This document shows positions 8,854-27,900 of a DNA stretch of 35,851 bases, piece by piece. The stretch lies in sequence record SRR31156797_1783. One strand, written 5' to 3'. The notes beneath the pieces are model-generated. The model searched no databases. It saw nothing but the letters and a program-made list of their open reading frames with translations, and was not told where the DNA came from. How positions within the stretch are numbered: position 1 is the stretch's first letter; the number at the start of each line of letters is the position of its first letter. A program made the position numbers and the translations under genes.

Positions 8854-8888
8854 AAAAGTGCAGTGAGTAGTCACTGCATCCTTTATTT
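8852..8888. terminator. Probable bidirectional terminator between convergent operons
   Basis: A6, then TGCAGTGA-GTAG-TCACTGCA, then TCCTTTATTT. The U-tract is stronger on the minus strand. Confidence 0.7.
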
Positions 8889-10418
8889 ATGTCTGGGCTT
8901 TACTGATTTTTGCCGCTTTGAATACTGCTGATACCTCAAATGTCTGTCAGCATATGAATACAGCATCATGCCGCCGACAATAGCAAGTATAATCAGCACA
9001 GCAATAAAGATTTTCTTAAATAACGGATTATTTGCATTATTTTGAATTTCCTCTATAATGTTTGTGTCAACTTTACCAAAATCCTCAGGTACTGCCGTCG
9101 GTTCTGCCGTTACCATAGGAACAGCATTTACATCATTTGCCGCTACCAGCTTTGCCTTTAGTTCAATCGTCATCAAGTCTGAACCATCTGGTGATTCCTG
9201 AAGGTAATCGTCATAGCTGTGGGTATTATTGTATGTATATGTTATTGTGCCTATATAGTCGCCCTTTTCAATAGGTGCAATAAGCGGGTCTTGATCGAAT
9301 TCAATTACAGCTGTAAAATATTCATCAGGATTTGCTCTAATTAGTTCACACAGCTCCTTGGTTTCTGTCAGGTAGGTCTTTGTATCTGGAGCAATTTCCA
9401 GATAAACCTCATTGCCGTCTATGCCGGAGGCAGCATTCTTTACTTCTGCTTTTATCTCCTTCTCACGGAAAAGTTGCTCAATATCTACAGTATCATAATA
9501 CTCAAACCCATACTCAAACATTGTAATAGAATTTATCCATTTACCATTGGTGGTATCCTTTAACACTACACCTACCAAAGATTGATTACCCTTTTCTGCT
9601 GACGTAACCAGAGTATGCTGAGCAGGAGTAGTAAACCCTGTCTTCATACCAGTTGCATAGTCATAGCCGTATGTAGAGTTACCATTTACCAGTTTGTTCG
9701 AGTTTCTCCACCTGTAACCGTCTCCAGAATAATCATGATAATCCGTATCGGATGGAGTATAGTATGCAGATGAAACTACCTTTACAAATGATGGGAATTT
9801 GTTTGCATATATAGCTAGTCTGGCATAATCCGCAGCACATGTTGAATGTCCTGATTGATAAAGCCCATGAGGATTTTTATATGTTGTTCTGGTCATGCCT
9901 AATTCTTCAGCCTTTTCATTCATCATGTCGATGAAATTATCATATGTACCGCCTACATGGATAGCTAGTGCTATTGCTGCATCAGCTCCTGATATTAGCA
10001 TCAGACCATAAAGTAAATCCTCTACATATACTGTTTCACCCTTTTGAAATCCACAGAGTTTTGCATCATCCTCCAGAGCCATAATTTCCACTGCCATATC
10101 ATTGCTTATAGTAACGATATCACTCATCTGAGTATTCTCAACAGCCAGTACTGCAGTCATAATTTTTGTAATTGAAGCAGGCTGCATATCTCTGTATTCG
10201 CTTTTGCCAAAGAGTATTCTCCCTGTTTTAGCGTCTGCTAGTATAGCTGCCTGTGCTGATGAAACAGCAGAACTCCGAAGCTCTCCTTCACTGTTTGCCA
10301 GCTCATCCCAGTCTCGTTCACTAACAGATGCTGCATAGGAAATCACACTGCCAAATAGCATAGTAACTGCCAGAACAAAGACTATTATGAATTTAGTAAT
10401 TTTACTCAATCTTCTCAT
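8883..10418 (-). CDS. D-alanyl-D-alanine carboxypeptidase family (S11, PBP5/DacA-like), copy 3; SxN motif reads SGA
   Basis: Signal peptide, PASITK (SxxK), LMLISGAD, NPHGL, MKTGF, C-terminal TM anchor. Confidence 0.9.
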   Translation of the reverse strand: MRRLSKITKFIIVFVLAVTMLFGSVISYAASVSERDWDELANSEGELRSSAVSSAQAAILADAKTGRILFGKSEYRDMQPASITKIMTAVLAVENTQMSDIVTISNDMAVEIMALEDDAKLCGFQKGETVYVEDLLYGLMLISGADAAIALAIHVGGTYDNFIDMMNEKAEELGMTRTTYKNPHGLYQSGHSTCAADYARLAIYANKFPSFVKVVSSAYYTPSDTDYHDYSGDGYRWRNSNKLVNGNSTYGYDYATGMKTGFTTPAQHTLVTSAEKGNQSLVGVVLKDTTNGKWINSITMFEYGFEYYDTVDIEQLFREKEIKAEVKNAASGIDGNEVYLEIAPDTKTYLTETKELCELIRANPDEYFTAVIEFDQDPLIAPIEKGDYIGTITYTYNNTHSYDDYLQESPDGSDLMTIELKAKLVAANDVNAVPMVTAEPTAVPEDFGKVDTNIIEEIQNNANNPLFKKIFIAVLIILAIVGGMMLYSYADRHLRYQQYSKRQKSVKPRHK

Positions 10419-10421
10419 TTA

Positions 10422-11957
10422 TCAATACCTGCGTCTGCCAGAATTTCCTCTGTTATCATGGGATCTGGAGCTTTGAGGTTGTTTGTACCTGTTGTTAGAT
10501 TTTGACCTGTTAACTATAAGTATAACCATCAAAAGTACCAGAATGATAAGTATCGCTATGACAGTGTACTTGATAATATCATTTAGTTCAAATCCGCCGC
10601 CAATTTGAGGAGACAATGTGGTTTCCGGTACTAAAGATTCCTCTGGAGTTGGTGTTGCAGTTACAATCGCATCAATACTGTTTTTTGCAATTAATGGTGC
10701 AGTATAAGAGAATTTCTGGGTTTCTCCCTCTGCCGCCTTGTAGCTCAAATATTCTGATGTATTACCTGAATAATTATATGTGTAAGTCACTGTGCCAAGC
10801 TGCTGACCTGCCTCAATAGGTGCTGTCAGCTGCTCTGCTGAATAGTCTATCTGCTCTGTAATATATGCAGAAGGGTCAGCTAATATTTCCTTTGTCTTCT
10901 CAGTACGCTCTGTAATATAGACGGCATCGCCCTCTCCTATAGTAACAGTTAACTCATCCCCGGTTGTATCCGGATTTGCTCCCTCTACAGTGGTAGTAAT
11001 CTCTGCTCCCTTGTACAGCGAACCAATATTAATAGTATCATAGAAATCAAAACCATAATCGAACAACATGCTTGAATTGTTCCATCTGCCAGTAAGTGAG
11101 TCATTCAGAACAACTGCTACCAAAGACTGACCATCGTTCTCAGCAGATGAAACTAAAGTATATCCTGCTTTTTTTGTATAACCTGTTTTAATTCCAGTAG
11201 CATACTCATAGCCGAATTCTTCATTTCCTGTAATCAACTCATTTAAGTTGAAAAAATATAAACCTTCCCCCTCAGAATACTTAGTAAGGTTTGTATCACT
11301 GGGCTTGTACTGCACAGTAGATACAATTTCGTTAAATTCAGGATACTGTTTTGCATACATAGCAAGCAGTGCCATATCACGGGCTGAGGTCACATGTCCT
11401 TCGTCTGTCAAACCAGTAGGGTTTATATACGTTGTGTTAGTCATTCCTATTTCAATAGCTTTGGCATTCATCATATTGATAAATTCATCGTATGTACCTC
11501 CGACATGATATGCCAGTGCTACTGCATCATCGCCTCCGGATACCAGCATCAAGCCATAGAGTAAGTCCTTGACGGAAATTATCTCGCTTTCCTTTACTCC
11601 GCTTTTGGATGCATCCTCATCCAAATCCCTTATCTGCTGTGCTATTACGCCGTTTATTGTAACCATATCTGTCATTTGGGAGTTTTCTATGGTTAATACA
11701 GCTGTCATAATCTTTGTAATTGAGGCCGGATCCAATACTTGGTCTATACCTTTCGCAAAAAGTATTCTGCCAGTATTTGCATCTACCAGTATCACAGCTT
11801 CTGCAGATGATACTGCCGCATCCTGTAGTTCTCCATCAGTATCTACCAGCTGATCCCATTGTCGAGTATCAGCATATGATACTGTATTGCCTACCAATAT
11901 TATAGCTGTCAAAACAACAGATATAATTAATTTGTTAATTTTATTAAATATTTTCAT
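10422..11957 (-). CDS. D-alanyl-D-alanine carboxypeptidase family (S11), copy 2; SxN motif reads SGG
   Basis: PASITK, LMLVSGGD, NPTGL, IKTGY, C-terminal TM helix and basic tail. Confidence 0.9.
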   Translation of the reverse strand: MKIFNKINKLIISVVLTAIILVGNTVSYADTRQWDQLVDTDGELQDAAVSSAEAVILVDANTGRILFAKGIDQVLDPASITKIMTAVLTIENSQMTDMVTINGVIAQQIRDLDEDASKSGVKESEIISVKDLLYGLMLVSGGDDAVALAYHVGGTYDEFINMMNAKAIEIGMTNTTYINPTGLTDEGHVTSARDMALLAMYAKQYPEFNEIVSTVQYKPSDTNLTKYSEGEGLYFFNLNELITGNEEFGYEYATGIKTGYTKKAGYTLVSSAENDGQSLVAVVLNDSLTGRWNNSSMLFDYGFDFYDTINIGSLYKGAEITTTVEGANPDTTGDELTVTIGEGDAVYITERTEKTKEILADPSAYITEQIDYSAEQLTAPIEAGQQLGTVTYTYNYSGNTSEYLSYKAAEGETQKFSYTAPLIAKNSIDAIVTATPTPEESLVPETTLSPQIGGGFELNDIIKYTVIAILIILVLLMVILIVNRSKSNNRYKQPQSSRSHDNRGNSGRRRY

Positions 11958-11960
11958 CAG

Positions 11961-13490
11961 TTAATGCCTGCGTCTTCCAGAACCTCCTCGATTATCTTGG
12001 GCTCTTGATTTTTGTGCCTTTCTGTATCTACTCTCTGATTTTGACCTGTAGACAACCAGAATAACTAATAGCAGTATCAGAATAATAAACAGTACTACAA
12101 TTGCATACATAGCAAAATCTCCTATATCAAAGCTTCCGCTTCCTCTAGGAGGCAGTGTAGTCTCTGGTATTGCTGTTGCTTCTGGTTCAGGTGTTTCAGT
12201 AACAATTGCTTCAATATTATTTTTTGCAATAAGAGGTGCTGTATATGAGAAATACTGAACCTCTCCCTCTGCTGCCATATAGCCTAAATACTCTACACTA
12301 TTATGTGAATATGTATATGTATATGTAACTGTACCAACCTGCTGACCTGCTGCAATCGGTGCTGTCAGCTGCTCAGTTGTAAAGTTTGTCTGCTCTGTAA
12401 AAAATGCTGAAGGGTCAGCTTTTATATCATCTATTCGCTCAGTACGCTCAGTAATATATACTGGATTACTTTCGCCTATAGTCATTATCAGCTCATCACC
12501 AGTTGTTGCCAGGTTCGCTTCATCAACAATAGTCGTAAGCTCGGTGTCTTGATACAGCGAGCCAATATCAATAGTATCATAGAAATCAAAACCGTAATCA
12601 AACAGTATTCTGCTGTTATCCCACTTACCGGTTTTTGTATCCTTTAAAACAACTGCAACCAAGGACTGTCCATCGTATTCAGCCGAAGAAACCAAAGTAT
12701 GTTCTGATGTTTGTGTATAACCGGTCTTTATCCCCGTAGCATACTCGTAACCATACACCTCATCACCATTAATCAGCCTATTTGTATTGGAAAAATATGC
12801 AGCTTGACCACTTGAATAACTGGTCAGATTAGTATCGCTTGGCTTATATTCCGCTGTAGAAACGACTTCATTAAATATTGGATACTGCTTTGCATACATA
12901 GCAAGCAGTGCCATGTCACGGGCAGAGGTCTTGTGCCCTTCATCTGTTAGTCCATGCGGATTGGTATATGTAGTATCCGTCATCCCTATTTCAATAGCCT
13001 TAGCATTCATCATTGCAATAAAGGCATCATATGTACCGCCTACATGATTTGCAAGAGCAACAGCTGCATCATTACCTGATTCCAACATTAAGCCATAGAG
13101 TAAATCCTGAACGGTAATAACCTCTCCTTCTTTTACTCCGCTTACTGATGAATCCTTGTCAAGGTCCTTTATCTGCTGAGCAATCACACTATTTATTGTA
13201 ACCTGATCCGTCATTTCTGCGTTTTCTATGGTTAATAAGGCAGTCATAATCTTTGTAATAGATGCTGGATACATAGAGCCATATGCACTTTTCTTGAATA
13301 AAATTCTCCCTGAATTAATATCTACTAGAATTGCACTGTCTGCCGAGTTTACAGCCTTATACAATAATTCTTCATCCTCTGTCAACCATCCTGACCAATC
13401 CCTAGTACCCGGCTCAGCAGACGCTGACGCCATACTCATTACGATTATCATAACAAGTATTATCGATACTAAAAGTTTTGACTTACGCAT
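11961..13490 (-). CDS. D-alanyl-D-alanine carboxypeptidase (S11), copy 1; canonical motifs
   Basis: PASITK, LMLESGND, NPHGL, IKTGY, C-terminal TM helix. AAAGGA RBS. Confidence 0.92.
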   Translation of the reverse strand: MRKSKLLVSIILVMIIVMSMASASAEPGTRDWSGWLTEDEELLYKAVNSADSAILVDINSGRILFKKSAYGSMYPASITKIMTALLTIENAEMTDQVTINSVIAQQIKDLDKDSSVSGVKEGEVITVQDLLYGLMLESGNDAAVALANHVGGTYDAFIAMMNAKAIEIGMTDTTYTNPHGLTDEGHKTSARDMALLAMYAKQYPIFNEVVSTAEYKPSDTNLTSYSSGQAAYFSNTNRLINGDEVYGYEYATGIKTGYTQTSEHTLVSSAEYDGQSLVAVVLKDTKTGKWDNSRILFDYGFDFYDTIDIGSLYQDTELTTIVDEANLATTGDELIMTIGESNPVYITERTERIDDIKADPSAFFTEQTNFTTEQLTAPIAAGQQVGTVTYTYTYSHNSVEYLGYMAAEGEVQYFSYTAPLIAKNNIEAIVTETPEPEATAIPETTLPPRGSGSFDIGDFAMYAIVVLFIILILLLVILVVYRSKSESRYRKAQKSRAQDNRGGSGRRRH

Positions 13491-14708: not shown

Positions 14709-15296
14709 AATTTTATAAATGAAGGCAACTACCTGAACAGTATAGCAGACAATCCAAATGGGTTAGTTATTGGAAATCTGCTGGTTTTGCTAATGAGTAT
14801 TGCATGTCCTATAATTGCATACAGTATTTATCCTGTACTTAGTAAAAGGTGCAAGACTCTGGCAATAAGTGCTGTAGGCTTTAGAACAATCGAAGGAGCA
14901 TTAACTGCACTCTCTGCTATAACACTTCTAGCCTTAGTCCCAATAGCGAAAGAATATGCAGCATCAGGAAGTGAATTAGCACTATCCTCTGCATATGGGT
15001 TACTTACATTGAATCAAACAATATCGCCGGTTCTGGGAATAATTTTTTCTACAGGTGCGTTGATGCACTATATTGGATTCTTCAAATCACGCCAACTGCC
15101 TCTATGGATATCTATCTGGGGAATAATCGCAGCTGTAATGCATATCGTTGCGAGTATACTAGTCTTTTACGGATATGAAGCCTTCTCTCCAATCAACTTG
15201 GTACTAAATATGCCAATTGTACTTCAGGAGATGGTAATGGCTGTTTATTTAATAATCTTTGGATATAGAGAAGGACGAGTGATTAAGACTGCATAA
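14709..15296 (+). pseudogene. DUF4386-like membrane protein, apparently 5'-truncated
   Basis: The frame is open from 14709 (after TGA 14706-14708) and gives family-like sequence NYLNSIADNPNGLVIGNLL upstream of the first TTG/ATG. No clear RBS. Internal motifs GFRTIEGA, FKSRQLPLWISIWG and QEMVMAVYLIIFG. Confidence 0.55.
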
Positions 15297-15313
15297 AGAC
15301 TGTAATATTTATG

Positions 15314-15339
15314 TGGACATATCGATTTGAATATGTCCA
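15314..15339. repeat. 9-bp inverted repeat (weak terminator or operator)
   Basis: TGGACATAT, 8 nt, ATATGTCCA just after the DUF4386-like stop; no strong U-tract. Confidence 0.45.
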
Positions 15340-15484
15340 TTATTAATTTCAATAATAAAAGATTTATTCAAGATAAGTATGTACCAAAAATCCTTACATC
15401 AAATTAATCAAACCTGCATTTAATCTTTATTCAGTATCTTACAATAACTTAACACATTCAATATAGTACTTTAAATTGCTACAG

Positions 15485-15513
15485 TTGACAATGCATAATT
15501 ATAATGCTATTAT
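15485..15513 (+). promoter_or_regulatory. Sigma-A promoter of the aro/phe operon leader
   Basis: TTGACA (15485-15490), 17 nt, TATTAT (15508-15513), with an extended -10 TG at 15505. Confidence 0.75.
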
Positions 15514-15579
15514 TACTTAAATTCCTTATTTCTGCTAAATTGGAATCTGGAATACTAACGAGGTTAGGCGCATACTATT

Positions 15580-15690
15580 ATGATGAGAAACAGCAAATCG
15601 CTTTTCAATGCATTTTATTCATTTTTATTTACATTTAGCTTTGGCTTTTTTGGCTTTAGCTTTTTTGGATATGGAAAAATAAAATGTTGA
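15580..15690 (+). CDS. Phe-rich attenuator leader peptide (PheL-like), 36 aa, MMRNSKSLFNAFYSFLFTFSFGFFGFSFFGYGKIKC
   Basis: Hand-translated ORF with 11 Phe and 2 Tyr codons between the promoter and the terminator. The RBS is weak or distant (GAGGTTAGG at 15560-15568). Confidence 0.85.
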   Translation: MMRNSKSLFNAFYSFLFTFSFGFFGFSFFGYGKIKC

Positions 15691-15752
15691 GTATCTCATA
15701 ATAGGAACATACGGAATTCAAGAGAGACTCAACAAATGAGTCTCTCTTTTTT
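15685..15752 (+). promoter_or_regulatory. Transcription attenuator (mutually exclusive antiterminator and terminator)
   Basis: Terminator: AGAGAGACTCA-ACAAA-TGAGTCTCTCT plus T-run (15721-15752). Antiterminator: TGTTGAGTATCTC (15685-15697) pairs at 12 of 13 positions with GAGAGACTCAACA (15722-15734). Confidence 0.85.
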
Positions 15753-15796
15753 ATTAAATCAACTCATAACTATATGCAAATATGAAAGGAAATTTT

Positions 15797-16807
15797 ATGA
15801 TAATTGTATTAGAGCCAAATACACCTGAATCGGCTATCGCTGATTTAACTAAAGAAGTAGAGAGCATGGGTGTTCACATCCAGAGAAACAACGGCGAATC
15901 CTATACCGTTCTTGCCCTGCTTGGTGATACGTCAAAAGTTAAGGAAGCACCAATTTTATCTAACAAATACGTACATAACTTAGTAAGAATTCAAGAACCG
16001 TACAAAAGAGCTAACAAAATCTTCAAACCTGAAAAAACAGTCATTGAAGTAGGCGGACACAAAATCGGCGGAGATGAACTAATAATTATGGCTGGACCAT
16101 GTTCTGTAGAGGGCGAAGAGAGCATAATAGAGCACGCAATAGCTGTTAAAAAAGCCGGTGCACACTTTTTGAGAGGCGGTGCATACAAGCCTCGCTCTTC
16201 ACCATATTCTTTCCAAGGCTTAGGCAAAGAGGGTATAGACTATATGGTTAAGGCAAAGAAAGAAACTGGACTGCCTATTATAACCGAAGTCATGGCAATC
16301 GGCACATTGGACGAATTTGCTGATGTAGACATTATTCAGGTTGGCGCCAGAAATATGCAGAACTTCGCATTGCTGAAAGCATTAGGAAAGACCAACAAAC
16401 CAATCCTGCTAAAGAGAGGACTAAGCTCAACAATAGAAGAATGGCTGATGTCAGCAGAATATATAATAGCTGAGGGCAACGAGAACGTTATACTTTGTGA
16501 GAGAGGCATCAGAACATTTGAGAACTATACCAGAAATACTCTGGACATATCAGCAGTGCCCGTAGTAAAGAGATTGAGTCACTTGCCAATAATCATCGAC
16601 CCATCTCATGCTGCTGGTCTATGGTGGATGGTTGATTCACTTTCAAAGGCTTCAGTTGCAGCTGGCGCAGACGGTCTAATAATAGAAGTACATCTAGACC
16701 CTCCTCATGCTATGAGCGACGGCGGACAGTCACTGCGTCCTGAACAGTTTGAAAAGCTAATGAAGGAGATTAAGCCAATTTCTAAAGCAGTAAACAGACA
16801 TTTTTAG
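15797..16807 (+). CDS. aroF: DAHP synthase type I-beta with N-terminal regulatory domain
   Basis: AGPCSVE, RGGAYKPRSSPYSFQGLG, QVGARNMQN, LCERGIRTFE, DPSHAAG. Start set at ATG 15797 behind AAAGGA (alternative 15782). Confidence 0.95.
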   Translation: MIIVLEPNTPESAIADLTKEVESMGVHIQRNNGESYTVLALLGDTSKVKEAPILSNKYVHNLVRIQEPYKRANKIFKPEKTVIEVGGHKIGGDELIIMAGPCSVEGEESIIEHAIAVKKAGAHFLRGGAYKPRSSPYSFQGLGKEGIDYMVKAKKETGLPIITEVMAIGTLDEFADVDIIQVGARNMQNFALLKALGKTNKPILLKRGLSSTIEEWLMSAEYIIAEGNENVILCERGIRTFENYTRNTLDISAVPVVKRLSHLPIIIDPSHAAGLWWMVDSLSKASVAAGADGLIIEVHLDPPHAMSDGGQSLRPEQFEKLMKEIKPISKAVNRHF

Positions 16808-16816
16808 GGGATTATA

Positions 16817-17878
16817 ATGATTGCACAAATAGGAAATATTACTTATCCGCTATTTATTGACAATGGCACAATAGATAGTATTGGAATAACTATTAAAAAA
16901 GAGTTCCCAAAGGCTAAAGCCGTAGTTATTACAGACGACAAAGTCAATGCTCTCTACGGCAAAAGAGTAATGAAAAATCTTGAGGCAAATAATATAGACG
17001 CTGATATTATAGTGTTGCCTCAGGGGGAGAGCACCAAGTCCTTTGCAGTGCTGGAAGAAGTTATTGATAAACTAGCTAATAAGAAAATTATAAGAGATGA
17101 TATACTAATAGCTCTAGGCGGCGGTGTAATTGGTGACCTGACTGGATTTGCTGCATCCTGCTATCTCAGGGGCATTAAGTATATTCAAGTACCCACTACG
17201 CTATTAGCTCAAGTGGACAGTTCTATTGGAGGAAAAACAGCCATCAATCTGCCTCAGGGCAAGAATTTGGTTGGTGCTTTCTATCAGCCATCTATGGTCT
17301 TTATCGACCCTGATGTACTTACTACACTAGACGATGATGACTATGCCTGCGGAATGGCAGAAATTATAAAGACTGCCGCTATCAGAGATAGAAATCTATT
17401 TGATACATTAAGCCAATATAAGGGCAGGACAAAGGTTCACCCAGTTATTGGCGATATTATCTCAAGGTGCTGCGAAATCAAACTGGACGTGGTAAGTCAG
17501 GATGAAAAGGACAAAGGACTTCGCATGATATTAAACTATGGTCACACCTTAGGACACGCTTTGGAGAAGTGCGAAAACACCCTCATCAAACATGGTATGG
17601 CTGTAGCCATCGGTATGGCAGTAATAACCAAAATGTCAGAGCAGCTGGGATTGACAGATAAGGGTACATATCAGAAAATCATACAAATACTAATGCAATA
17701 CGATTTGCCCTATTTATCAGAAGGTTATGATATGGAGAAAGTACTCACACTGGCTAAAATGGATAAAAAGAACTTAAACAGCAAGCTCAACCTAATATTG
17801 CTAAAAGAAATAGGTAGCTGCTACATTCATAGTGTGGATTATTCAGAATTCGTAAGCATGACAGGAGATACCATATGA
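16817..17878 (+). CDS. aroB: 3-dehydroquinate synthase
   Basis: ALGGGVIGDLTGF, PTTLLAQVDSSIGGKT, LNYGHTLGHALE, HGMAV, DKK. Confidence 0.96.
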   Translation: MIAQIGNITYPLFIDNGTIDSIGITIKKEFPKAKAVVITDDKVNALYGKRVMKNLEANNIDADIIVLPQGESTKSFAVLEEVIDKLANKKIIRDDILIALGGGVIGDLTGFAASCYLRGIKYIQVPTTLLAQVDSSIGGKTAINLPQGKNLVGAFYQPSMVFIDPDVLTTLDDDDYACGMAEIIKTAAIRDRNLFDTLSQYKGRTKVHPVIGDIISRCCEIKLDVVSQDEKDKGLRMILNYGHTLGHALEKCENTLIKHGMAVAIGMAVITKMSEQLGLTDKGTYQKIIQILMQYDLPYLSEGYDMEKVLTLAKMDKKNLNSKLNLILLKEIGSCYIHSVDYSEFVSMTGDTI

Positions 17879-19158
17879 TTATTACGCCATCGATTCTCAA
17901 GGGCACTGTTATTGTCCCGCCGTCCAAAAGCCACGCTCATAGAGCAATAATTTGTGCGGCACTATCAGATAATGATACTATAATCTCAAATGTCAATATG
18001 TCAAATGATATAATAGCAACAATTAACGCTCTTCGCCAGCTAGGTGCAGTAATTGAGGTAGAAGGCAGTACACTGAAAATCGCAAAATATGAAAAAAAAG
18101 ATAGAATCAAAGAGCACCTTACAATTAACTGCCATGAGTCAGGTTCAACACTGAGATTTATCATACCTATTGCCATAGCGCTGGCAGACAAGGTAACATT
18201 TACAGGCAGTGCCAGACTGCCAAAGCGAAGCCTGGATGTATACTTTGATTTGTTCGACAAACTAAACATCAAATATAGTCGTGGCAAAGACTATCTGCCA
18301 TTAACTGTTGAGGGACAATTGCCAACGGATGGAAAATTCCATATGCGAGGTGATATCAGCTCTCAATTTATAACCGGTTTACTGCTGGCTCTGGGTATAA
18401 ATAATTCCAAATCAACTATTTACATTACAACACCCCTTGAATCAAAGCCTTATATAGACATTACACAAATGGTCATGAGTGAATATGGCGTTGATGTTAC
18501 CTATAGTGAAAATACTGATAATAATTCATATTCCTGCCTCTACAGTATAGAGAGTACAGGCTACAAATCAAAATTAAAAGATGAAGTCTCGGGAGACTGG
18601 TCACAATCAGGGTTTCATATTCTAGCTGGATTAAATGGTGATATTACTATTAATGGATTAAATCCCAATTCACCACAAGGAGATAAAGCTATATTGGATA
18701 TTATCAGCAGAATGAACGGCAATATTATACAATATGGTAATGGCATTGTGTGCAAAAATTCAAATCTTACTCCAATCGATACAGATGTCAGTGACATACC
18801 TGATATGGCAGTTGCAATAGCTGGCGCTATGGCAGTAGCTGATGGAACTAGCCGTATTACAGGTGCAGGCAGACTTCGCCTAAAGGAATCTGACAGAATA
18901 GAAACTATTATAACCACAATTAATAATTTAGGTGGACAGGCAACATCAGATGGTGATACTATAGTTATTGTAGGAAAAGATAGCCTTTCAGGCGGTTTTG
19001 TTAAATGCCACAATGACCATAGGATTGCTATGCTGGCAGGGGCATTATCTACCTACTGCAAGAATCCAGTGGAAATAGACGATAAAGACTGTGTAAATAA
19101 ATCCTATCCAAATTACTGGAGGGATTTTGTGAATCTTGGAGGTAGTATCAATGAGTAG
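17875..19158 (+). CDS. aroA: EPSP synthase
   Basis: PPSKSHAHR, ESGSTLRF, ISSQFITG, LRLKESDR, HNDHRIAM, KSYPNYW. Confidence 0.96.
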   Translation: MIITPSILKGTVIVPPSKSHAHRAIICAALSDNDTIISNVNMSNDIIATINALRQLGAVIEVEGSTLKIAKYEKKDRIKEHLTINCHESGSTLRFIIPIAIALADKVTFTGSARLPKRSLDVYFDLFDKLNIKYSRGKDYLPLTVEGQLPTDGKFHMRGDISSQFITGLLLALGINNSKSTIYITTPLESKPYIDITQMVMSEYGVDVTYSENTDNNSYSCLYSIESTGYKSKLKDEVSGDWSQSGFHILAGLNGDITINGLNPNSPQGDKAILDIISRMNGNIIQYGNGIVCKNSNLTPIDTDVSDIPDMAVAIAGAMAVADGTSRITGAGRLRLKESDRIETIITTINNLGGQATSDGDTIVIVGKDSLSGGFVKCHNDHRIAMLAGALSTYCKNPVEIDDKDCVNKSYPNYWRDFVNLGGSINE

Positions 19159-20236
19159 TATTTACGGCAAAAACCTAAAGATTTCTGTTTTTGGCGAAAG
19201 CCACGGCAAAGCCGTAGGCGTTACCATAGACGGTCTGCCATCTGGCGTGAAACTGGATATGGATAGTATAAATGCTCTTATGCTGCGTCGTGCTCCGGGA
19301 CATACGCCATGGTCTACACCTAGGAAGGAATCCGATAAGGTAGAGATATTATCGGGTGTAAAGGATAATATAACTACCGGTACACCGCTGACTGGCATAA
19401 TATTTTCCACCAATACAAAATCAGGCGACTACAGCAGACACCGTGATATTCCTCGTCCAAGCCATGCAGACTACACCGGACTAAAAAGATACAACGGACA
19501 TAATATCATAGCAGGGGGAGGTCATTTCTCTGCCAGACTAACTGCACCTATTGTATTTGCAGGTGCAATTGCAAAGGATATATTAAGAGAAAAGGGTATT
19601 GAAATCTCTGCACGTATTGAACAAATTGCAAATATTAAAGACACCAGTATTGATTTGTGTACTGGATTTACAGAAGATGATATTCCAGATAAATCTTTCC
19701 CCGCTATTTCACAGGATACAAAGGAAAAGATGATAGATACTGTGCTAACAGCCAAAGAAAAGGGAGACTCTGTAGGCGGTGTAGTAGAATGTTGTATTAT
19801 TAATATGCCAGCAGGTATAGGCTCACCAATATTCAGAAACATGGAGAGCAATATTGCTTCTATGCTTTTTTCCATTCCTGCCATAAAAGGTGTAGAATTT
19901 GGTATCGGATTTGACATTGCCAAAATGCAGGGTTCACATGCTAATGATAGAATGAAAATAGTTGATACAAAAGTAGTCACAACTACAAATAATAATGGCG
20001 GTATTCTAGGCGGTATTACCAACTCAATGCCTATTATATTCCGCTGTGCTGTCAAACCAACTGCCTCAATTGCTCTCGAGCAGGATACAGTTGACTTATC
20101 AAGTAATGAAAACACAAAAATCAAAATTGAAGGTCGTCATGACCCTTGCATAGTGCCAAGAGCAATACCTGTTGTAATTGCTGGTACTGCACTTGCCGTG
20201 CTGGACACATGGATGGATCAGGGCTTTATACTATAA
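19151..20236 (+). CDS. aroC: Chorismate synthase
   Basis: FGESHG, PRPSHAD, GGGHFSARLTA, NNNGGILGG, GRHDPCIVPRA. ATG 19151 follows GGAGG. Confidence 0.96.
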   Translation: MSSIYGKNLKISVFGESHGKAVGVTIDGLPSGVKLDMDSINALMLRRAPGHTPWSTPRKESDKVEILSGVKDNITTGTPLTGIIFSTNTKSGDYSRHRDIPRPSHADYTGLKRYNGHNIIAGGGHFSARLTAPIVFAGAIAKDILREKGIEISARIEQIANIKDTSIDLCTGFTEDDIPDKSFPAISQDTKEKMIDTVLTAKEKGDSVGGVVECCIINMPAGIGSPIFRNMESNIASMLFSIPAIKGVEFGIGFDIAKMQGSHANDRMKIVDTKVVTTTNNNGGILGGITNSMPIIFRCAVKPTASIALEQDTVDLSSNENTKIKIEGRHDPCIVPRAIPVVIAGTALAVLDTWMDQGFIL

Positions 20237-20265: not shown

Positions 20266-21387
20266 TTGGATTTAGAGAAGATACGGGAGAAAATAGACGA
20301 CTTAGATTCCCAGATAATTGAGGCATTTGAAAAGCGAATGACACTGATAGACGAGGTTGCCAGATACAAGATAAAAAACGGCAAACCTATCTTTGACATG
20401 TCCAGAGAAGATAAAGTCATAGAGAGGGCTGTTGACCGGGTACAGACTGAATTCGTAAAAGAATACGTGCCTGATTTGTACCACTCAATTATGAACATTT
20501 CCAAACAGAGACAAAAAGCTCTCTTATCACAGCTTTCACCAGATAATAAGAAAAAAAAGGATACAAATGGTAAAACCGTAGGTTATCTTGGAATAAAAGG
20601 CTCATTCAGCCATCAAGCAATGACCCAATTCTTTGACAATGCAAGAGGTATTGGCTATGATAATTTTGATGAAATAATTGAACATGTATCAAATGGACAG
20701 CTGGATTACGGCATTGTCCCTATAGAAAACACTTCAACCGGCGATGTAAATCTGGTTATTGATTTGCTTCCATCATCTAATGTATGGATTTCTCATGAAT
20801 TTGTACTAAAGATAGAGCACTGTCTGCTAGGTAAAAAGGGAGCAGAGCTATCAGATATCAAACTGGTACACAGCCATCCGCAGGCTATAAGTCAGAGCAG
20901 GGATTTCCTGTACAGAAATGCCATTGATGTCAGCCTTAGCAAATCAACGGCTCAGGGTGCACTTTTGGCAAAAGAAGCAGATGACAAATCAATTGGTGCA
21001 ATAGGCTCAGTCCACTGCGCCAATGAATACGATTTGAACATAATTAAATGTAAAATAAACACAAATACTTACAATTATACACGGTTTGCAATCCTGCAAA
21101 AGGAGCATACTGTAGTAGAGGATGCCAATAAAACCAGCTTGATTATCGAGATTGATCACAAATCCGGTTCACTATACTCAATGCTGTCTATCTTTAGCAA
21201 GCGAAACCTGAATCTATTGAAACTGGTTTCAAGACCCATACCCAATAATCCGTGGGCATATAAATTTTATCTGGATTTCTCAGGCAATATATTTGATAAA
21301 GAGATAAACTCTGTTCTGGATGATATGAATGAATTAGGAGCAAGAGTAAAAATAATCGGCTGCTACAAAACTTTTGAGGTACTATAA
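20266..21387 (+). CDS. pheA: Bifunctional chorismate mutase / prephenate dehydratase
   Basis: N-terminal chorismate mutase domain (IREKIDDLD...YK...PIFDMSRE), then GSFSHQA, PIENTSTG, SHPQAISQ, YTRF and an ACT domain with SRP. Confidence 0.93.
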   Translation: MDLEKIREKIDDLDSQIIEAFEKRMTLIDEVARYKIKNGKPIFDMSREDKVIERAVDRVQTEFVKEYVPDLYHSIMNISKQRQKALLSQLSPDNKKKKDTNGKTVGYLGIKGSFSHQAMTQFFDNARGIGYDNFDEIIEHVSNGQLDYGIVPIENTSTGDVNLVIDLLPSSNVWISHEFVLKIEHCLLGKKGAELSDIKLVHSHPQAISQSRDFLYRNAIDVSLSKSTAQGALLAKEADDKSIGAIGSVHCANEYDLNIIKCKINTNTYNYTRFAILQKEHTVVEDANKTSLIIEIDHKSGSLYSMLSIFSKRNLNLLKLVSRPIPNNPWAYKFYLDFSGNIFDKEINSVLDDMNELGARVKIIGCYKTFEVL

Positions 21388-22193
21388 TGAATTTGTATGG
21401 ATTGTTAGGGCATAAATTATCTCATAGCATTTCCCCTCTGGTACACAAGATAATTCTTGACTATGCAGGTTTAAATGGGAAATATAAGCTCTTTGAACGT
21501 GAAGAAAAAGGAATTCCAGATTTATTGGACGACATTATACTGTGCAATATCAAAGGCATTAATGTTACCATCCCTTACAAAGAAACTGTATTTAAAATGG
21601 TCAAAGAAATAAGCCCAGAGGCAAAAGCAATCGGTGCAATGAATACCATATGCTTAAAGGACAATAAACTGACAGGCTACAATACAGATTACTACGGCTT
21701 CACCAAGGCATTGGAGTGCGGCGGCATCAGTGCACAAGACAAGAGGGTAGTGGTACTAGGCAGCGGAGGCTCCAGCAAGGCTGTCTGCTATGCCCTCAGT
21801 AATCTTGGTACACAGTCCATTACCATTGTCAGCCGAAGTCCGCAAAAAGGAAAATCAAATTACAACATGATATCATATAATCAATTGCCTCTGGCACAAT
21901 ATGACATCTTGGTTAATACCACACCTGTTGGAATGTACCCAAATGCAGACAATTGTCCGATACATGAGGATTTGATAAGCAAAGCAGATGCTGTTGTGGA
22001 CTTAATCTATCGTCCCAAGATAACAAAGCTGCTGTCATATGCCAATAAGCATAATATACGAAATGTCAACGGTCTGTATATGCTGGTAGCACAAGCAGTA
22101 AAAGCACAATCCATTTGGAATGAAATCTGCTTTAAAAATGAGGACATCAAAAAGATTTATAATCAAGTGTTAGGAGGATATGATTTTGGCTAA
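21387..22193 (+). CDS. aroE: Shikimate dehydrogenase
   Basis: HSISPLVH, NVTIPYKE, GYNTDYYGF, LGSGGSS, NTTPVGM, GLYMLVAQA. Confidence 0.95.
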   Translation: MNLYGLLGHKLSHSISPLVHKIILDYAGLNGKYKLFEREEKGIPDLLDDIILCNIKGINVTIPYKETVFKMVKEISPEAKAIGAMNTICLKDNKLTGYNTDYYGFTKALECGGISAQDKRVVVLGSGGSSKAVCYALSNLGTQSITIVSRSPQKGKSNYNMISYNQLPLAQYDILVNTTPVGMYPNADNCPIHEDLISKADAVVDLIYRPKITKLLSYANKHNIRNVNGLYMLVAQAVKAQSIWNEICFKNEDIKKIYNQVLGGYDFG

Positions 22194-22692
22194 AAATTTG
22201 GTCTTGATAGGAATGCCCGGCAGCGGAAAGACAACTATTGGACAATTGCTTGCTGCAAAGCTCTCTATGGACTTTATTGATATTGATGATGTTATAGAAA
22301 GCTACGGAATGACTATAGATGAACTCTTTGAAAGCGGAGAGGATGCTTTCCGTTGTGTGGAGACTATGGCAGTAAAGGATGTAGCATCTCACCACGACTT
22401 AATAATTGCAACAGGCGGAGGTGTCGTCACTAGAGAAGAGAATATTCATTACTTGAAACAAACAGGATTCATCTTCTTTCTGGACAGGTCTTTAGATAAA
22501 ATAAAAAAGGACTTAGCTCACGATAAAACCAGACCTCTCTTGGCAAATGATTTGTCAGCCCTTGATGCTCTGTATGACAAGAGATTTAATTTGTATAATA
22601 AATATGCTGATATAGTAATTGACAGCAATGTTTCTGTTTATATGGTTGCTGATGCTGTAGCTAAGGCTTACAGAGAGCTAACCTCAAAGTAA
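22180..22692 (+). CDS. aroK: Shikimate kinase
   Basis: LIGMPGSGKTT, GEDAFR, ATGGGVV, RPLL. Confidence 0.93.
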   Translation: MILAKNLVLIGMPGSGKTTIGQLLAAKLSMDFIDIDDVIESYGMTIDELFESGEDAFRCVETMAVKDVASHHDLIIATGGGVVTREENIHYLKQTGFIFFLDRSLDKIKKDLAHDKTRPLLANDLSALDALYDKRFNLYNKYADIVIDSNVSVYMVADAVAKAYRELTSK

Positions 22693-22710: not shown

Positions 22711-23160
22711 ATGAAAATTTTAGTTATTAATGGTCCTAATCTCAATATGCTTGGAACAAGAGAACCGGAAATATACGGCAACCGTACACATGATGATTTA
22801 GTTGTGTACCTAAAGAATGAAGGTGCCAAACTGAATGTGGATGTGGATGTGCTTCAGTCAAATTATGAGGGTGATATAATAAATGCAATACACGATGCAA
22901 ATGATAACAACTACTACGGCATTGTAGCCAATTTCGGCGCATTTACCCACTACAGCTATGCTATATTTGATGCCGTCAAGTCTCAGACTATCCCTGTTGT
23001 AGAGGTACATATGTCAAATATTCACGACAGAGATGAATTCCGCTCCAAATCTGTTACTGCACCGGCATGTCTAGGAATTATCAGTGGTTTTGATTTTCTC
23101 TCCTACGCACTTGGTTTAAAGGTAGTAGTGGAGAATGCGTATATGGATACGGAAAGTTAA
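22711..23160 (+). CDS. aroQ: Type II 3-dehydroquinate dehydratase
   Basis: INGPNLNMLGTREPEIYG, QSNYEG, THYSYA, VEVHMSNIHDRDEFR; AAGGAG RBS. Confidence 0.96.
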   Translation: MKILVINGPNLNMLGTREPEIYGNRTHDDLVVYLKNEGAKLNVDVDVLQSNYEGDIINAIHDANDNNYYGIVANFGAFTHYSYAIFDAVKSQTIPVVEVHMSNIHDRDEFRSKSVTAPACLGIISGFDFLSYALGLKVVVENAYMDTES

Positions 23161-23244
23161 CAGTTAGGAGAGCAATAGGGTTTTGCCTCATCCTATTTAA
23201 AGAACTAGCCCCCTTAAAAATACCAACATTTAAATAAACAATAT

Positions 23245-23282
23245 AAATGCAGTAAATAAATTTTGCTGTATTTTTTATTTTA
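23245..23282 (+). terminator. Probable terminator of the aro operon
   Basis: AAATGCAGTAAA / TTTGCTGTATTT stem with two G-U pairs, followed by T-tracts. Confidence 0.55.
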
Positions 23283-23770
23283 AAATTATCTAGCTAAAAT
23301 TATCTTTCACTGATATGTATTAAACCCTCAATAGATAATACTCTCATTATCTATAACTGCTTCTTTGATTATAATAAACTTATGTACAGTATACACAGCA
23401 AATAATGCATAACCCCCTCCCCCCGTCCATCATCCCTTTAATACCCTCAGGCAAATAATTTACCCATTCCATCACTTATTTAACACCAAAGAGTGCATAA
23501 GATTATATTTCCTGTTTCATACTAATATCATTGCACTATATATATCTTAGGTGGAGTAATAAATCTTGCATGCAGTAATTTCACCAATAGATATATGTAT
23601 AAAGGAAACAAGCTTAATCATTACCAATAGAAACCAACAGAATTATAAATTGGAACTGATTGGTATCTGAAAAATCGCTTATCACAAGCTCTCTTGTTTT
23701 AAGTTAATGCTTTATCTTATTAGTTTTGCATGTTATAATTACAACTGTATATATAAAGTGGGATTAGACT

Positions 23771-24952
23771 ATGCAATACAAATTCGTTCAGATTTCTGAT
23801 ATTTGTTTTAACCACAGCATTACGTGGAATTCAGAGATTAACAAGTTAATAGAAAGCATTAGAGAAGAAGCATTTGAGAACACAATCAACTTGTGTATTG
23901 AAGAAAAGGCAACTGCTCTAATTATATGCGGTAATTTATACGATGAAAGCAACTTAACCTTACACACAGTGCAATTACTGAAGCACTCATTCAACCGCTT
24001 AAAAGCCAACAATATAGCGATTGTATACGCTCATGGCAAGCTGGACAAAGGTGCTCTGGTAAAGAATCTGAAAAAGGAGGTCTTTGACTTTAGTACAGGA
24101 TACAGCAGTAATAGCTATACCTTGGGCTTTGACTTGGACAGAGTTGATTTTATCGGCATGGGTTACAGCAGGATGCTGATGATGGAAGATGAATTCATGG
24201 ACGCAGGTTCCGGTGAAAATCTGACCATCGGCTTAATGTATGTTGACAAAAATGTCTATAATGAAACAATGACAGATACCATAAGGAAAAGGCTCCAAAA
24301 GAGTAAAGCAGACTATTGGGCTATAGGCGGAGAACCTTCCTACATAGCCTATGATAAGAAAAAGAAATACTGCAGCAGCGGTTCTTTAAGTATTGTTCCA
24401 GATAATACTCCCAGCTGTGCAGTAGTGAGAGTTAATAACAAGAAACGTATTACAACAAATAAAATCAATGTCAGTAATTATGTGTTTAAGGAAATTTCTG
24501 TTGTTTCAACAGATAATCACGGCGATGTATATTCACTGGTGGAAGATTGCGTTATGCATATTCTCAATAATAAAGATCTTAAAAAGAAAAATATTATTAA
24601 ACTTAATATCAAAGGTCCGAGCAAATGCTATATTAATCTTACAACTCATCTAGAAGAGCTTGAAAAGGAAATTGCTAGACTTACAGATGTAAACCTGTAT
24701 ATTAATATTAATGAATTGTACAAAAAAGTTGAAATAACCAAAGCACTAAAGGAAGAAACAGATATCACTAATCTCTTGGAACAATACGAGAAACTCTATG
24801 ACGATGAAGCATTTAATCATATGATATTTTCTCTTCAGTCAAGAGGTGCGCTTTATCTGCAAAATGACCAGGATATCGACAGGAATAAACTCCTAGAAGG
24901 TGTTGATTCCATGCTAGTCGAATCAAGAAAAAACAATAAATCTACAGATTAA
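23771..24952 (+). CDS. YhaO/SbcD(Mre11)-like metallophosphoesterase-fold protein with degenerate active-site motifs
   Basis: Motif positions are recognisable but altered: FVQISDIC, ICGNLYDE, AHGKLD, DYWAIGGEP, SSGS. It sits upstream of a YhaN-like ATPase. Confidence 0.75.
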   Translation: MQYKFVQISDICFNHSITWNSEINKLIESIREEAFENTINLCIEEKATALIICGNLYDESNLTLHTVQLLKHSFNRLKANNIAIVYAHGKLDKGALVKNLKKEVFDFSTGYSSNSYTLGFDLDRVDFIGMGYSRMLMMEDEFMDAGSGENLTIGLMYVDKNVYNETMTDTIRKRLQKSKADYWAIGGEPSYIAYDKKKKYCSSGSLSIVPDNTPSCAVVRVNNKKRITTNKINVSNYVFKEISVVSTDNHGDVYSLVEDCVMHILNNKDLKKKNIIKLNIKGPSKCYINLTTHLEELEKEIARLTDVNLYININELYKKVEITKALKEETDITNLLEQYEKLYDDEAFNHMIFSLQSRGALYLQNDQDIDRNKLLEGVDSMLVESRKNNKSTD

Positions 24953-24986
24953 ATATAATAAGTATAGCAACCTAAGGAGGACCGAC

Positions 24987-27900
24987 ATGATTATCAAGAC
25001 CATATCTGCAGAGAATTTCGGAAAATTTGACCGATACTCTGTTAGCCTAGATGACAATATAAATGTGTTCTACGGCTCAAATGAAGCCGGAAAATCCACA
25101 CTTTATCAAATAATATCTACCCTTTTATTTGCCCCAACAACATCTGAGGAAACTCTGACCAGTAATAAGCTGATTAAAAAGGGGGAAGAGTACGCAAGAG
25201 TTTACGCTATTATGAATATTAAGGGTAAGGAAGTCTCCGTAGCACGAGAAATTTACCAAAATGATACTAACCTGACTATAGCTGAAAAGGATAACATTTC
25301 ATCTCTGGGTAATGTCAATGTACCCTTTATAGGCGACTTATCCCGTGATATGTATGAAAATCTTCATACAATAGACTATTACAACATGGCAACCATAACA
25401 AATAATGTCTGGGAACAGATAATGAAAATGATTCAGCAGACCCATGGTGCTCCTCGCAGGACTCCTTTATTTACCACAGATGAAAACGAAGAAGATATCC
25501 TGATAAATTCTCCATATGCTGAGGAAATTACAGCTCTTGAAAAAGAGATTAGTGAACTCTATGATAAGCTGAAGCTGTCCAAGCAGTCTCAGATAAAAAT
25601 GATAAAAAATCAGGAAACAATTGATAAATTCCAGTCTTCCTTAGAAGATGTTGAGCACAATATTGAATTGGAAAGTGCTTATCTGCGTGAAGCTGATAAA
25701 ATGAACAATATCAGAGCAACAATCAAAAAGACTCAGGACTTGGCTCTGGAACTTGAAACTTACAAAAAATTGGAACCATACATGCCTGATTTGCGTGAAA
25801 AATTTATGAAGCTAAAAGAGTACAGCTACAGAAAGGAAAATAATCTTCCAACTGATGATATTATTTTTGATGCAGCCAGTGAGGATATGGAACTTGTAGA
25901 AAGTCAAGAACCTGTGGAGCCAAAAATTGACGTAATGCCAGTTGTAGATAGTATTATTGCTTCAGAAATTGAAACAGCAATACCAGCTGATGAAACCAAA
26001 TCAGCAAAAGAAGATATTTCACAAAAAAGTTATGAGCAGACAATAAGCGAAAGTTCATTTGCAAATCAAGAAGTAATAGAAGCAATTAAGCGCATCAAAC
26101 ATAAAGGATTGGTTAATAATCCCTCAGGCAAATTTAATAATAATATGAAAATGAACCCTTATGACGTAGATGCATCTGATAAAGAATCAACAAAACAAAA
26201 GAACACTCAAGATGAAGAAAAATCTTTTTCCAGCAGTCAGGATGTACTAAAAAAATCACGTGATTTAAGAAAAATGTATGGTATGTCTACCCCGTACTCT
26301 GACAGTCATCCGGATATGAGCGACACAGACTACAGCAATGTGGACGTATCTGGAATCAAAGATGATGACAAAGGCGGCTACTCCTCTTTTAAAAATGAAG
26401 AAGAAACAGAGCCTACATTATCAGCTGATGCAAATGCGCTGGATATTCGTATCATAGATGCAAATGATGATAAATCTGATTCTATAACAGATTATGATAT
26501 TATTAGAATGGGTGATTCTCTGGAGCAGGTTGATGAAGAGGCCATAAAAATTGCTATAGAAAAGGCAAAAATACTATCAGATGAAGATGAAAAATCCCTT
26601 CACAACTCCTTTACAGCATTTACACGGGTAGTTAACAGGAATCTTAGCCAATACGATGATATCCAGGATATTATCAAAACATTAGAAGAAATTGATATAA
26701 GCAATATCAATAAATCTGTCGTTGAATATAGAGAGCTAACCCGAAATCTCCGAAAGATAGAGCACAACGTTAACAGGATGGAGTCATCTGCTAACAATAA
26801 TTCAAAAGTGATTTCTATGGTGATAATATCATTTATCAGTATGATTCTTGGTGTTGGTTGTTTCTTTATTGAACAAATAGTAGACTATGTACCGCAGCTT
26901 GAAGTAGTCTCTGATATCATTATGTCATTACCATTCCAGAATTACTTCGCAGGCGGCGCATTTGCACTAATTGGAATACTTCTGATCGTTGCATCCATTT
27001 TGGGTTCAGACTCTACATATGTTGAAAAAATCGCTGTTGATGAAGTCGAGATGGATAACCTTCGGAATAAGCTTCGCAGTTCAAAAAGACAAATAATTGA
27101 CTCACTAAAGGATTTACCTGTGCCTCCTGAATATCTGGACAATCCTTCAAATAATATAGTACAAACAGTTGGTGAGATTAAATCAGCATACGAAGATTAT
27201 CTTAATCTGCAAAAGAAAATATCTACTCCGGAAAGCATTGATATAAATCTGGTAAACGACCTAAGTAACAAATTCTTAAGTAATAAAAGTGATGATGTAT
27301 TTGAAAATATTAAAAGCTTAAGAGAACTGTTAGAAACAACCAAAGAAAAAATAAGAGAAGAAACTTCCCAAGATAATCAGCACAGTATAAGTCCAAAAAG
27401 CTTTGGTGAATCTACAAATACACTAAATATACCAAGCAATAATGAGTTTTCAGAATATGAAGTTAACTCTGATGCACCAAATCAGCAGGTCAATTCAGTA
27501 AAACCTGCAAGTGCTAGCTTCGGAGGACCAGGAAGCGTAAAAATCAATAGTAAAATCATGTCCCCTGACGATTCTGATTCTTACCAATCAGAACTTGACT
27601 ATGATGATAGTATAGACGAAGTTACAAATTTTGGTGCTGGTATTAACACTGGAGATGGTGATTACGATCAAAATGATATCAGTTATCCTACAGCTAGTGA
27701 CAGCAGTAGTAATCTAACTATTGACTCAGAAGATAACACATATCCTAACGAAGATATAAAGTCAGACGATACAGGTGAAAATCCATATGGCATTCCAGGA
27801 ATTCGAAAATATGACGGAATATCTGATAGCACTGACAGCAAAGATAAAGCTTCTTTTTTACCAGATTACGACAGTACTTTGTCAGACAATGCTTTTGACA

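Follow-up and report, generated by a model that had tools for sequence, protein, structure and literature searches.

In this study, we analysed a stretch of 35,851 nucleotides (nt) from sequence record SRR31156797_1783, referred to here at its full length as the window, with a focus on the leader region that lies directly upstream of an operon for the synthesis of chorismate and phenylalanine. The eight genes aroF-aroB-aroA-aroC-pheA-aroE-aroK-aroQ are closely packed on the + strand between positions 15797 and 23160. The first of them, aroF (15797-16807), encodes a DAHP (3-deoxy-D-arabinoheptulosonate 7-phosphate) synthase with an N-terminal ferredoxin-like domain (NF006421, 491 bits), the likely start of which is the ATG at 15797 following the sequence AAGGA. 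It is followed by aroB (3-dehydroquinate synthase, 16817-17878), aroA (5-enolpyruvylshikimate-3-phosphate synthase, 17875-19158), aroC (chorismate synthase, 19136-20236, with an uncertain start codon), pheA (bifunctional chorismate mutase/prephenate dehydratase, 20266-21387), aroE (shikimate dehydrogenase, 21387-22193), aroK (shikimate kinase, 22180-22692) and, as the last operon gene, aroQ (type II 3-dehydroquinase, 22711-23160). A gene for prephenate dehydrogenase (tyrA) is not among these eight. A first-pass annotation, made from the sequence alone, had proposed that positions 15485-15752 in front of aroF contain a Phe-rich leader peptide with a full attenuator, and we have followed up this proposal computationally.

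The leader begins with a sigma-70-type promoter at 15485-15513 on the + strand, in which TTGACA and TATTAT are separated by 17 nt and a TG precedes the -10 box. With 11 of 12 matches it is, as first described, near-consensus, and it was the top-scoring site of a promoter scan between 15200 and 15900; its position would imply a transcription start near 15520. Further downstream on the same strand lies an open reading frame (ORF) of 36 codons plus a UGA stop codon (15580-15690), which begins with ATG ATG and whose product is MMRNSKSLFNAFYSFLFTFSFGFFGFSFFGYGKIKC. Its translation and codon count agree with the earlier description, with 11 Phe codons (10 TTT and 1 TTC), two Tyr codons and no Trp codon. 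The putative regulatory codons form a block at 15604-15672, in which the Phe codons extend from 15604 to 15664-15666 and the Tyr codons are found at 15616 and 15670; the U-runs of the leader fall in frame as codons, in alternation with AGC and GGC codons. Inside the ORF a hairpin (15610-15687, + strand) is predicted, which has an inner stem of AGCU and GGCU at 15637-15664, gives z = -5.9 against codon shuffles and might have a pausing or timing role. Its overlap with the predicted 5' arm of the antiterminator, TGTTGAGTATCTC (15685-15697, + strand), amounts to only about 3 nt. This arm spans the UGA stop codon at 15688-15690 and, in line with the original claim, can pair with 15722-15734 through 12 of its 13 positions; across all 35.8 kb of the window, no other match has one mismatch or none. 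An intrinsic terminator is located at 15720-15752 on the + strand, with its 5' arm at 15720-15731, the loop at 15732-15736, the 3' arm at 15737-15748 and a T-run to 15752. While the location is where the first-pass annotation had placed it, the stem is not of 11 bp, as we count 12 pairs including two basal A-U pairs; it closes on a 5-nt loop, is followed by TTTTATT and has a predicted stability of -17.9 kcal/mol. In the 44 nt between the terminator and aroF (15753-15796), the promoter scan revealed no promoter-like site, and therefore aroF relies on read-through from the promoter at 15485.

A chance origin of these elements is unlikely. When the intergenic region (15341-15796) was subjected to 2000 dinucleotide shuffles, 11 or more Phe in a small ORF arose only twice, and seven or more aromatic residues in 12 codons were reached 64 times. 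When all six frames of the window were inspected, the leader ORF was the only spot with at least nine Phe in 20 codons, and the long ORFs of the window contain 3.7% Phe as compared with 11 of the 36 codons in the leader ORF. The pairing of the arm with the terminator was calculated at -16.7 kcal/mol and has a z of -7.5 against shuffles of the intervening segment.

The antiterminator and the terminator are mutually exclusive, and we used folding predictions to ask how a ribosome on the leader would influence the choice between them. Ribosome masks assumed a footprint of about 28 nt, so that a ribosome on the UGA codon hides 15673-15700. Folding the leader with and without such a mask had been suggested as a check of the proposal. 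Equilibrium folds of the full leader cannot tell the states apart, and therefore truncated transcripts were used, with ends at 15737 or 15742, where the 3' arm of the terminator is still incomplete; here the masks do discriminate. In the transcript to 15737, the antiterminator (15686-15697:15722-15733) forms in seven of the eight states tested, namely without a ribosome, with stalls at F9, F12, F17, F24 and F29, and with the F29 stall plus a second ribosome at the start. The only state in which it is lost is that with a ribosome on UGA masking 15673-15700, and the classical attenuation logic of the original proposal is in this respect supported in silico. In the transcript to 15742, the antiterminator is seen with stalls at F9, F17 and F29 (three of the five single-ribosome stalls) and also with the F29 stall plus a second ribosome at the start, and is again absent with a ribosome on the UGA, so that the result for this longer transcript is less clear-cut.

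Based on these data, we consider it likely that the element is a ribosome-mediated leader-peptide transcription attenuator, which senses charged tRNA-Phe and controls the eight-gene aro-pheA operon, perhaps with a small additional sensing of tRNA-Tyr by the leader. According to this model, RNA polymerase would start from the 15485-15513 promoter and a ribosome would translate the 36-codon leader. With ample Phe-tRNA, this ribosome would reach the UGA at 15688, cover approximately 15673-15700 and hide the arm at 15685-15697; with the arm hidden, the terminator (15720-15748) would fold and the polymerase would stop at the U-tract before aroF. Under a shortage of Phe-tRNA, the ribosome would stall at any of the 11 Phe codons (15604-15666) and leave the arm free, which could then pair with 15722-15734 before the 3' arm of the terminator has been made, resulting in read-through into aroF and on to aroQ. 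The model thus presumes that the leader ORF is translated, that ribosomes stall within it and that read-through responds to Phe.

The same layout recurs in front of aroF in related bacteria. Scans for AroF in genome and metagenome contigs yielded 159 loci, which were picked by their AroF similarity to the window. In one scan of each type, identity to the AroF of the window did not exceed 64% for genome contigs and 62% for metagenome contigs, and the relatives used here lie at 55-64%. Nine loci with less than 200 nt of upstream sequence (L027, L040, L066, L080, L093, L111, L129, L150 and L152) were dropped, and with the window added this gave 151 upstream regions, which were dereplicated to 120 clusters. 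Scored as positive was any region with a small ORF containing at least six F/Y/W residues in 12 codons. This filter was passed by 99 of the 151 regions and, after dereplication, by 69 of the 120 clusters, compared with 15 of 120 (12.5%) on the reverse strand and 111 of 2400 (4.6%) dinucleotide shuffles; with a stricter cut-off of at least seven F/Y/W, the numbers were 55 of 120, 4 of 120 and 21 of 2400, respectively. In 97 of the 99 positive regions, a hairpin with a T-run lies between the ORF and aroF; the exceptions are L020 and L005, the terminator of which is imperfect. The positive clusters carry the labels Clostridium butyricum, C. chromiireducens, Clostridioides difficile, Oscillibacter and other Oscillospiraceae, and they further include Christensenellaceae, a Pelosinus metagenome-assembled genome and an Acidaminococcus-labelled genome. 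In the 51 of 120 clusters without an aromatic ORF, an Rfam scan of the fetched 1.2-1.5 kb revealed no T-box or other Rfam element; in some of these clusters aroF may not be the first gene. Two of the loci, L074 and L039, are located about 10 kb apart on one contig and represent two aroF paralogues in one genome, one preceded by an F/W-rich leader and followed after about 4 kb by pheA, and the other without an aromatic leader ORF and with tyrA directly behind it.

The leader peptides of the relatives range from 16 to about 70 residues in length. Their frames are aromatic-rich in differing nucleotide sequences, with UAU/UAC Tyr and UGG Trp codons mixed in, and their core blocks consist of 63% F/Y/W and just 4.5% L/I/V/M, which is unlike a membrane helix. 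By eye, the peptide of the window can be aligned with those of L056, L102 and L092 over a common core, F-S-F-G-[FY]-F, and L084 has a related FFCFGFF; more generally, the motif F-S-x-G-[FY]-[FY] recurs across lineages. In the leader ORFs of L049, L065, L102, L106, L115 and in the window at 15637-15664, which represent several unrelated lineages, the few non-aromatic codons within the aromatic block (AGC Ser, GGC Gly, GCU Ala and ACC Thr) make the G-C pairs of a hairpin, an example of which from the Oscillibacter-type leaders is AGCUUUACC...GGUAAGGCU. An RNA constraint of this kind may underlie the conserved F-S-x-G-[FY] motif. When compared with codon shuffles, the in-ORF hairpin has a median z of -1.0 in the family, with z < -2 in 19 of 67 cluster representatives, and the window stands at -5.9.

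A six-sequence MAFFT alignment was too gappy at the stems to count pairs, and per-locus duplex tests were used instead. For 38 of the 67 cluster representatives, the terminator 5' arm finds its best partner in a segment that begins at most 15 nt from the stop codon, and the pairing between arm and terminator has z < -2 in 27 of 67; the same antiterminator geometry is found in examples of quite different sequence. The segment at the stop codon also pairs better with the terminator arm of its own locus than with those of other loci (double-centred mean of -3.9 versus 0.06 kcal/mol; Mann-Whitney p = 3e-23), and 20 to 22 of 67 cognate pairs fall within the best 5%. In this test, the window takes the top rank among 66, whichever direction is compared.

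The codon content of the leaders follows the genes that are located downstream. Tyr makes up a median share of 0.50 of the leader aromatics when tyrA is encoded right after aroF (n = 46) and of 0.29 when aroB is next (n = 17), with 6 loci unclassified; a one-sided Mann-Whitney test gives p = 9e-9, a value that overstates the independence of these related sequences. The window, with 11 Phe and two Tyr codons, a Tyr share of 0.15, aroB as the next gene and pheA but no tyrA in the operon, fits this pattern. Gene calls were confirmed by searches with the Pfam families PDH and PDT in ten genomes, and in all five Tyr-rich leaders that were checked with Pfam, tyrA was found directly after aroF. L056 has one of the leaders nearest to that of the window, with 10 Phe and one Tyr; here, pheA lies some 3.5 kb further downstream, and tyrA is encoded on a different contig. 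That Tyr/Phe content tracks operon content suggests that these peptides are read as sensors.

The region was also compared with known RNA families. Nowhere in the window did an Rfam family match at the gathering score, and T-box leaders (Rfam RF00230) gave no match at an E value of up to 10 in 15350-15850; T-box control was thus rejected on the covariance-model searches, and the first-pass annotation, which had seen no T-box motif, was right on this point. The Phe-leader model, which it had suggested for a search, did not recognize the element: Phe_leader (RF01859) reached only 15.3 bits (E = 8.1) against a gathering score of 55, in an alignment over the terminator only, and this identity was rejected as well. 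Leaders controlled by TRAP contain approximately 9-11 (G/U)AG triplets spaced 2-3 nt apart. The longest such chain with 2-3 nt spacers in 15520-15796 consists of two triplets, and TRAP control was rejected. The Lactococcus leu/phe leader motif is represented in Rfam and, like all other Rfam families, did not match the window. The premise that T-boxes are the usual control of such operons did not hold for the relatives either, since a T-box was found in none of 60 related aroF loci; the Rfam scan of these gave just four tRNAs, all in L018, where four tRNA genes (281-972) are located just 5' of the aromatic leader.

Several observations weigh against an attenuator that is operated by a translating ribosome. 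As already noted by the first-pass annotation, the ribosome-binding site (RBS) of the window ORF is weak. The only Shine-Dalgarno-like sequence is a GAGG core at 15560-15563 (+ strand), which is in the loop of a small hairpin (15555-15567) and 16 nt ahead of the ATG; the RBS would consist either of this GAGG at a spacing of 16 nt or of AGG alone at a spacing of 11 nt. The spacing of the predicted GAGG is too long for a good RBS and is a weak point of the model, and the window is not among the 45 of 69 positive clusters with a canonical Shine-Dalgarno sequence before an in-frame start. The terminator stem is followed by just four U, or six if the two basal A-U pairs are counted. In equilibrium folds, the full leader yields the terminator under every ribosome mask because this is the more stable helix (-17.9 versus -13.4 kcal/mol for the antiterminator), which is normal for attenuators. 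In addition, a long-range pairing of the start-codon region with the segment behind the stop codon (15575-15587:15691-15703) competes with the antiterminator, and in the transcript to 15742 it wins with stalls at F12 and F24 and without a ribosome. The model therefore rests on co-transcriptional kinetics. Furthermore, folds of the leader revealed no clear anti-antiterminator; the hairpin at 15610-15687 coexists with the antiterminator and overlaps the arm by so few nucleotides that it is not an obvious candidate for this role, and therefore the untranslated default is, unlike in trp, not clearly termination. With regard to the relatives, chance alone would let about 5-12% of regions through the ORF filter, and the family statistics are drawn from related, non-independent sequences. 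Finally, no close relative of the exact leader was found, with AroF identity reaching at most 64%, and the relatives bear on this particular frame and these stems only indirectly.

The weak RBS would be less of a concern if the attenuator were real but set by an RNA-binding protein, uncharged tRNA or a small molecule, with the Phe-rich frame being a by-product of U-rich RNA. The strong structure of the leader (15520-15760) and of its ORF region (z = -4.9 and -5.9) would suit such a mechanism, as would the finding that the 5' untranslated region (5'UTR) of C. difficile aroF2 is enriched with Hfq, according to the supplement of PMC8237595. However, neither a T-box nor any other Rfam family was matched even at E up to 10, no TRAP-like array is present, and the U-runs alternate in frame with AGC and GGC codons. 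U-richness also does not explain why aromatic frames in the relatives use UAU/UAC and UGG codons. Their Tyr share, in addition, tracks tyrA, and we regard this explanation as improbable. The ORF could also be an independent gene for a small hydrophobic protein without any regulatory link to aroF, since promoter, ORF and terminator form a complete unit and the recurring F-S-x-G-[FY]-[FY] motif could mean selection at the peptide level. Against this, aroF would be left without a promoter-like site in the 44 nt past the terminator, the unit directly precedes aroF in 69 of 120 clusters, and an antiterminator arm over the stop codon would have no role. A core with 63% F/Y/W and 4.5% L/I/V/M in peptides of 16 to about 70 residues, and Ser, Gly and Ala codons (AGC, GGC and GCU) that are conserved and build an RNA stem in several lineages, also speak against a protein-coding function of this kind, and we think it very improbable. 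A coincidence in an intergenic region with 37% T, in which the hairpin is a leaky terminator or an RNA-stability element, would be in keeping with the 64 of 2000 shuffles that reach seven aromatics in 12 codons. It is hardly credible in view of the two shuffles with 11 Phe, the 13-mer match that is unique in the window, the z of -7.5 for its pairing and the recurrence of the whole layout in relatives.

Ribosome-mediated attenuation, which we thus prefer for the window leader, has counterparts in other bacteria. In Corynebacterium glutamicum, the aroR leader upstream of aroF contains a Phe-Tyr-Phe motif and has been reported to respond to Phe and not to Tyr (Neshat et al., 2014, as cited in PMC11802643); this leader is also treated by Mentz et al. 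(2013; PMC4046766). Both systems have a short Phe/Tyr leader before a DAHP synthase gene, in which stalling raises (or, in the window, would raise) transcription. However, C. glutamicum is an actinobacterium and has only Phe-Tyr-Phe where the window has 11 Phe, and the window operon covers the whole chorismate pathway plus pheA. A second example is the motif uORFC-13-1, for which Phe-dependent attenuation has been proposed in a Firmicutes-related lineage (Brewer et al., 2021; PMC8632094). In that report, the motif is found only upstream of aroF, is restricted to Acholeplasma and environmental sequences, has 24 representatives and encodes 'at least one' Phe codon. It is described with -35 and -10 boxes, a start codon, a Phe-coding U-run and an adjacent intrinsic terminator, all of which the window has, and with an RBS, which is poor in the window; it further differs in its origin, Acholeplasma as opposed to the walled source of the window, which encodes three PBP5-type carboxypeptidases and a sortase. 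Leader-peptide attenuation with another amino acid and operon has also been predicted in Firmicutes, namely for His leader peptides in the B. cereus group, Peptostreptococcaceae and Erysipelotrichales (PMC9413887). With C. glutamicum published, Acholeplasma proposed and these His leaders predicted, the novelty that the first-pass annotation had attached to the element was overstated. Beyond the works cited here, we found no description in the literature searched of aromatic leader peptides before aroF in Clostridia, and the accessible text of Naville and Gautheret (2010) contains nothing on aro genes.

The likeness to the enterobacterial pheL-pheA and to the trpL and hisL systems lies in a promoter-proximal ORF that is rich in codons for the end product and in mutually exclusive antiterminator and terminator structures. 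The window differs in that the element would control eight genes rather than pheA alone, in that no 1:2 anti-antiterminator is evident and in the length of its ORF, which has 36 codons compared with 15 in pheL.

It has been reported that aroF in C. difficile 630 is subject to premature termination in its 5'UTR, which showed no likeness to known riboregulators (Fuchs et al., 2021; PMC8237595). According to the supplement of that study, the aroF2 5'UTR extends from 2105557 to 2105883 (326 nt), termination was mapped to 2105845, which is 38 nt ahead of the gene, and the 5'UTR is enriched in Hfq RNA immunoprecipitation sequencing in three growth phases with log2 fold changes of 2.2 to 4.4. Hfq may bind this U-rich leader transcript. 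Among our loci, L037 is from a different C. difficile strain and has a TTGACA/TATAAT promoter that ends just before -326, a leader ORF that starts at -300 or -285 and a predicted terminator stem that ends at -44 and is followed by TTTTT. The ends mapped in strain 630 therefore bracket the leader predicted in L037, and the mapped termination site is in the predicted U-tract. L037 bears MEDNTMKGILKELTAKLYSFYYFMFWGFYFSAGYFFYK... plus the terminator and belongs to the same family by our analysis, although its peptide is F/Y/W-mixed and its leader is longer (326 nt). Leader-peptide attenuation offers a mechanism for this early termination in C. difficile, for which the available text of PMC8237595 gives none.

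The mechanism suggested here is a textbook one, and the window leader is most likely one more member of a common, barely catalogued Clostridia-type family. Somewhat more tentatively, and with a confidence that falls a little short of an even balance for the joint claim, we suggest that it belongs to an old and very widespread superfamily of aromatic leaders that is absent from Rfam, has hardly been described in print and would span Clostridium, Clostridioides, Oscillospiraceae, Christensenellaceae and Negativicutes-labelled genomes. Its members would have a mix of Phe and Tyr (and Trp) codons that is tuned to the terminal-branch genes riding with aroF, and would keep AGC, GGC and GCU codons for an RNA hairpin inside the sensing block. 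Termination would need a ribosome on the stop codon, and an anti-antiterminator would be lacking, so that the untranslated default would be read-through, which is the opposite of trp. The instance itself is ordinary, and its moderate interest comes from the regularities of the family, namely its breadth, the Phe/Tyr tuning and the hairpin made of non-aromatic codons. Nevertheless, the model would assign a concrete control mechanism to a whole chorismate-plus-phenylalanine operon of an unstudied Firmicute, and for this group of aroF orthologues our data add evidence that leader-peptide attenuation, and not the T-box, is the common control at the RNA level. The relation of the Tyr/Phe content of leaders to the content of operons provides a simple natural experiment, and a curated RNA model of the aromatic-leader family would improve the annotation of many gut Clostridia genomes.

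With regard to the genomic surroundings, the upstream neighbour of the leader is a gene for a DUF4386 protein (14787-15296), which is parted from the leader unit by a terminator-like hairpin of its own at 15313-15340 (+ strand) with 10 pairs followed by a T-rich tail. Other proteins encoded in the window, namely LepA, a DltB-like protein, three PBP5-type carboxypeptidases, a class B sortase and MnmA, show that this DNA is from the chromosome of a Gram-positive bacterium with a cell wall. The carboxypeptidases are encoded on the minus strand at 8883-13490 as three tandem paralogues of about 510 amino acids each, of the PBP5/DacA D-Ala-D-Ala carboxypeptidase type. The 610-nt gap past aroQ (23161-23770) contains neither a terminator-like site on the + strand nor an ORF of at least 90 amino acids. 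Beyond this gap, at 23771-29396, a 393-amino-acid protein with faint similarity to SbcD/Mre11 is encoded, followed by a protein of 1469 amino acids, the N terminus of which weakly matches Rad50/RecF ATPase heads; from these similarities, the two look like a divergent SbcCD-like pair.

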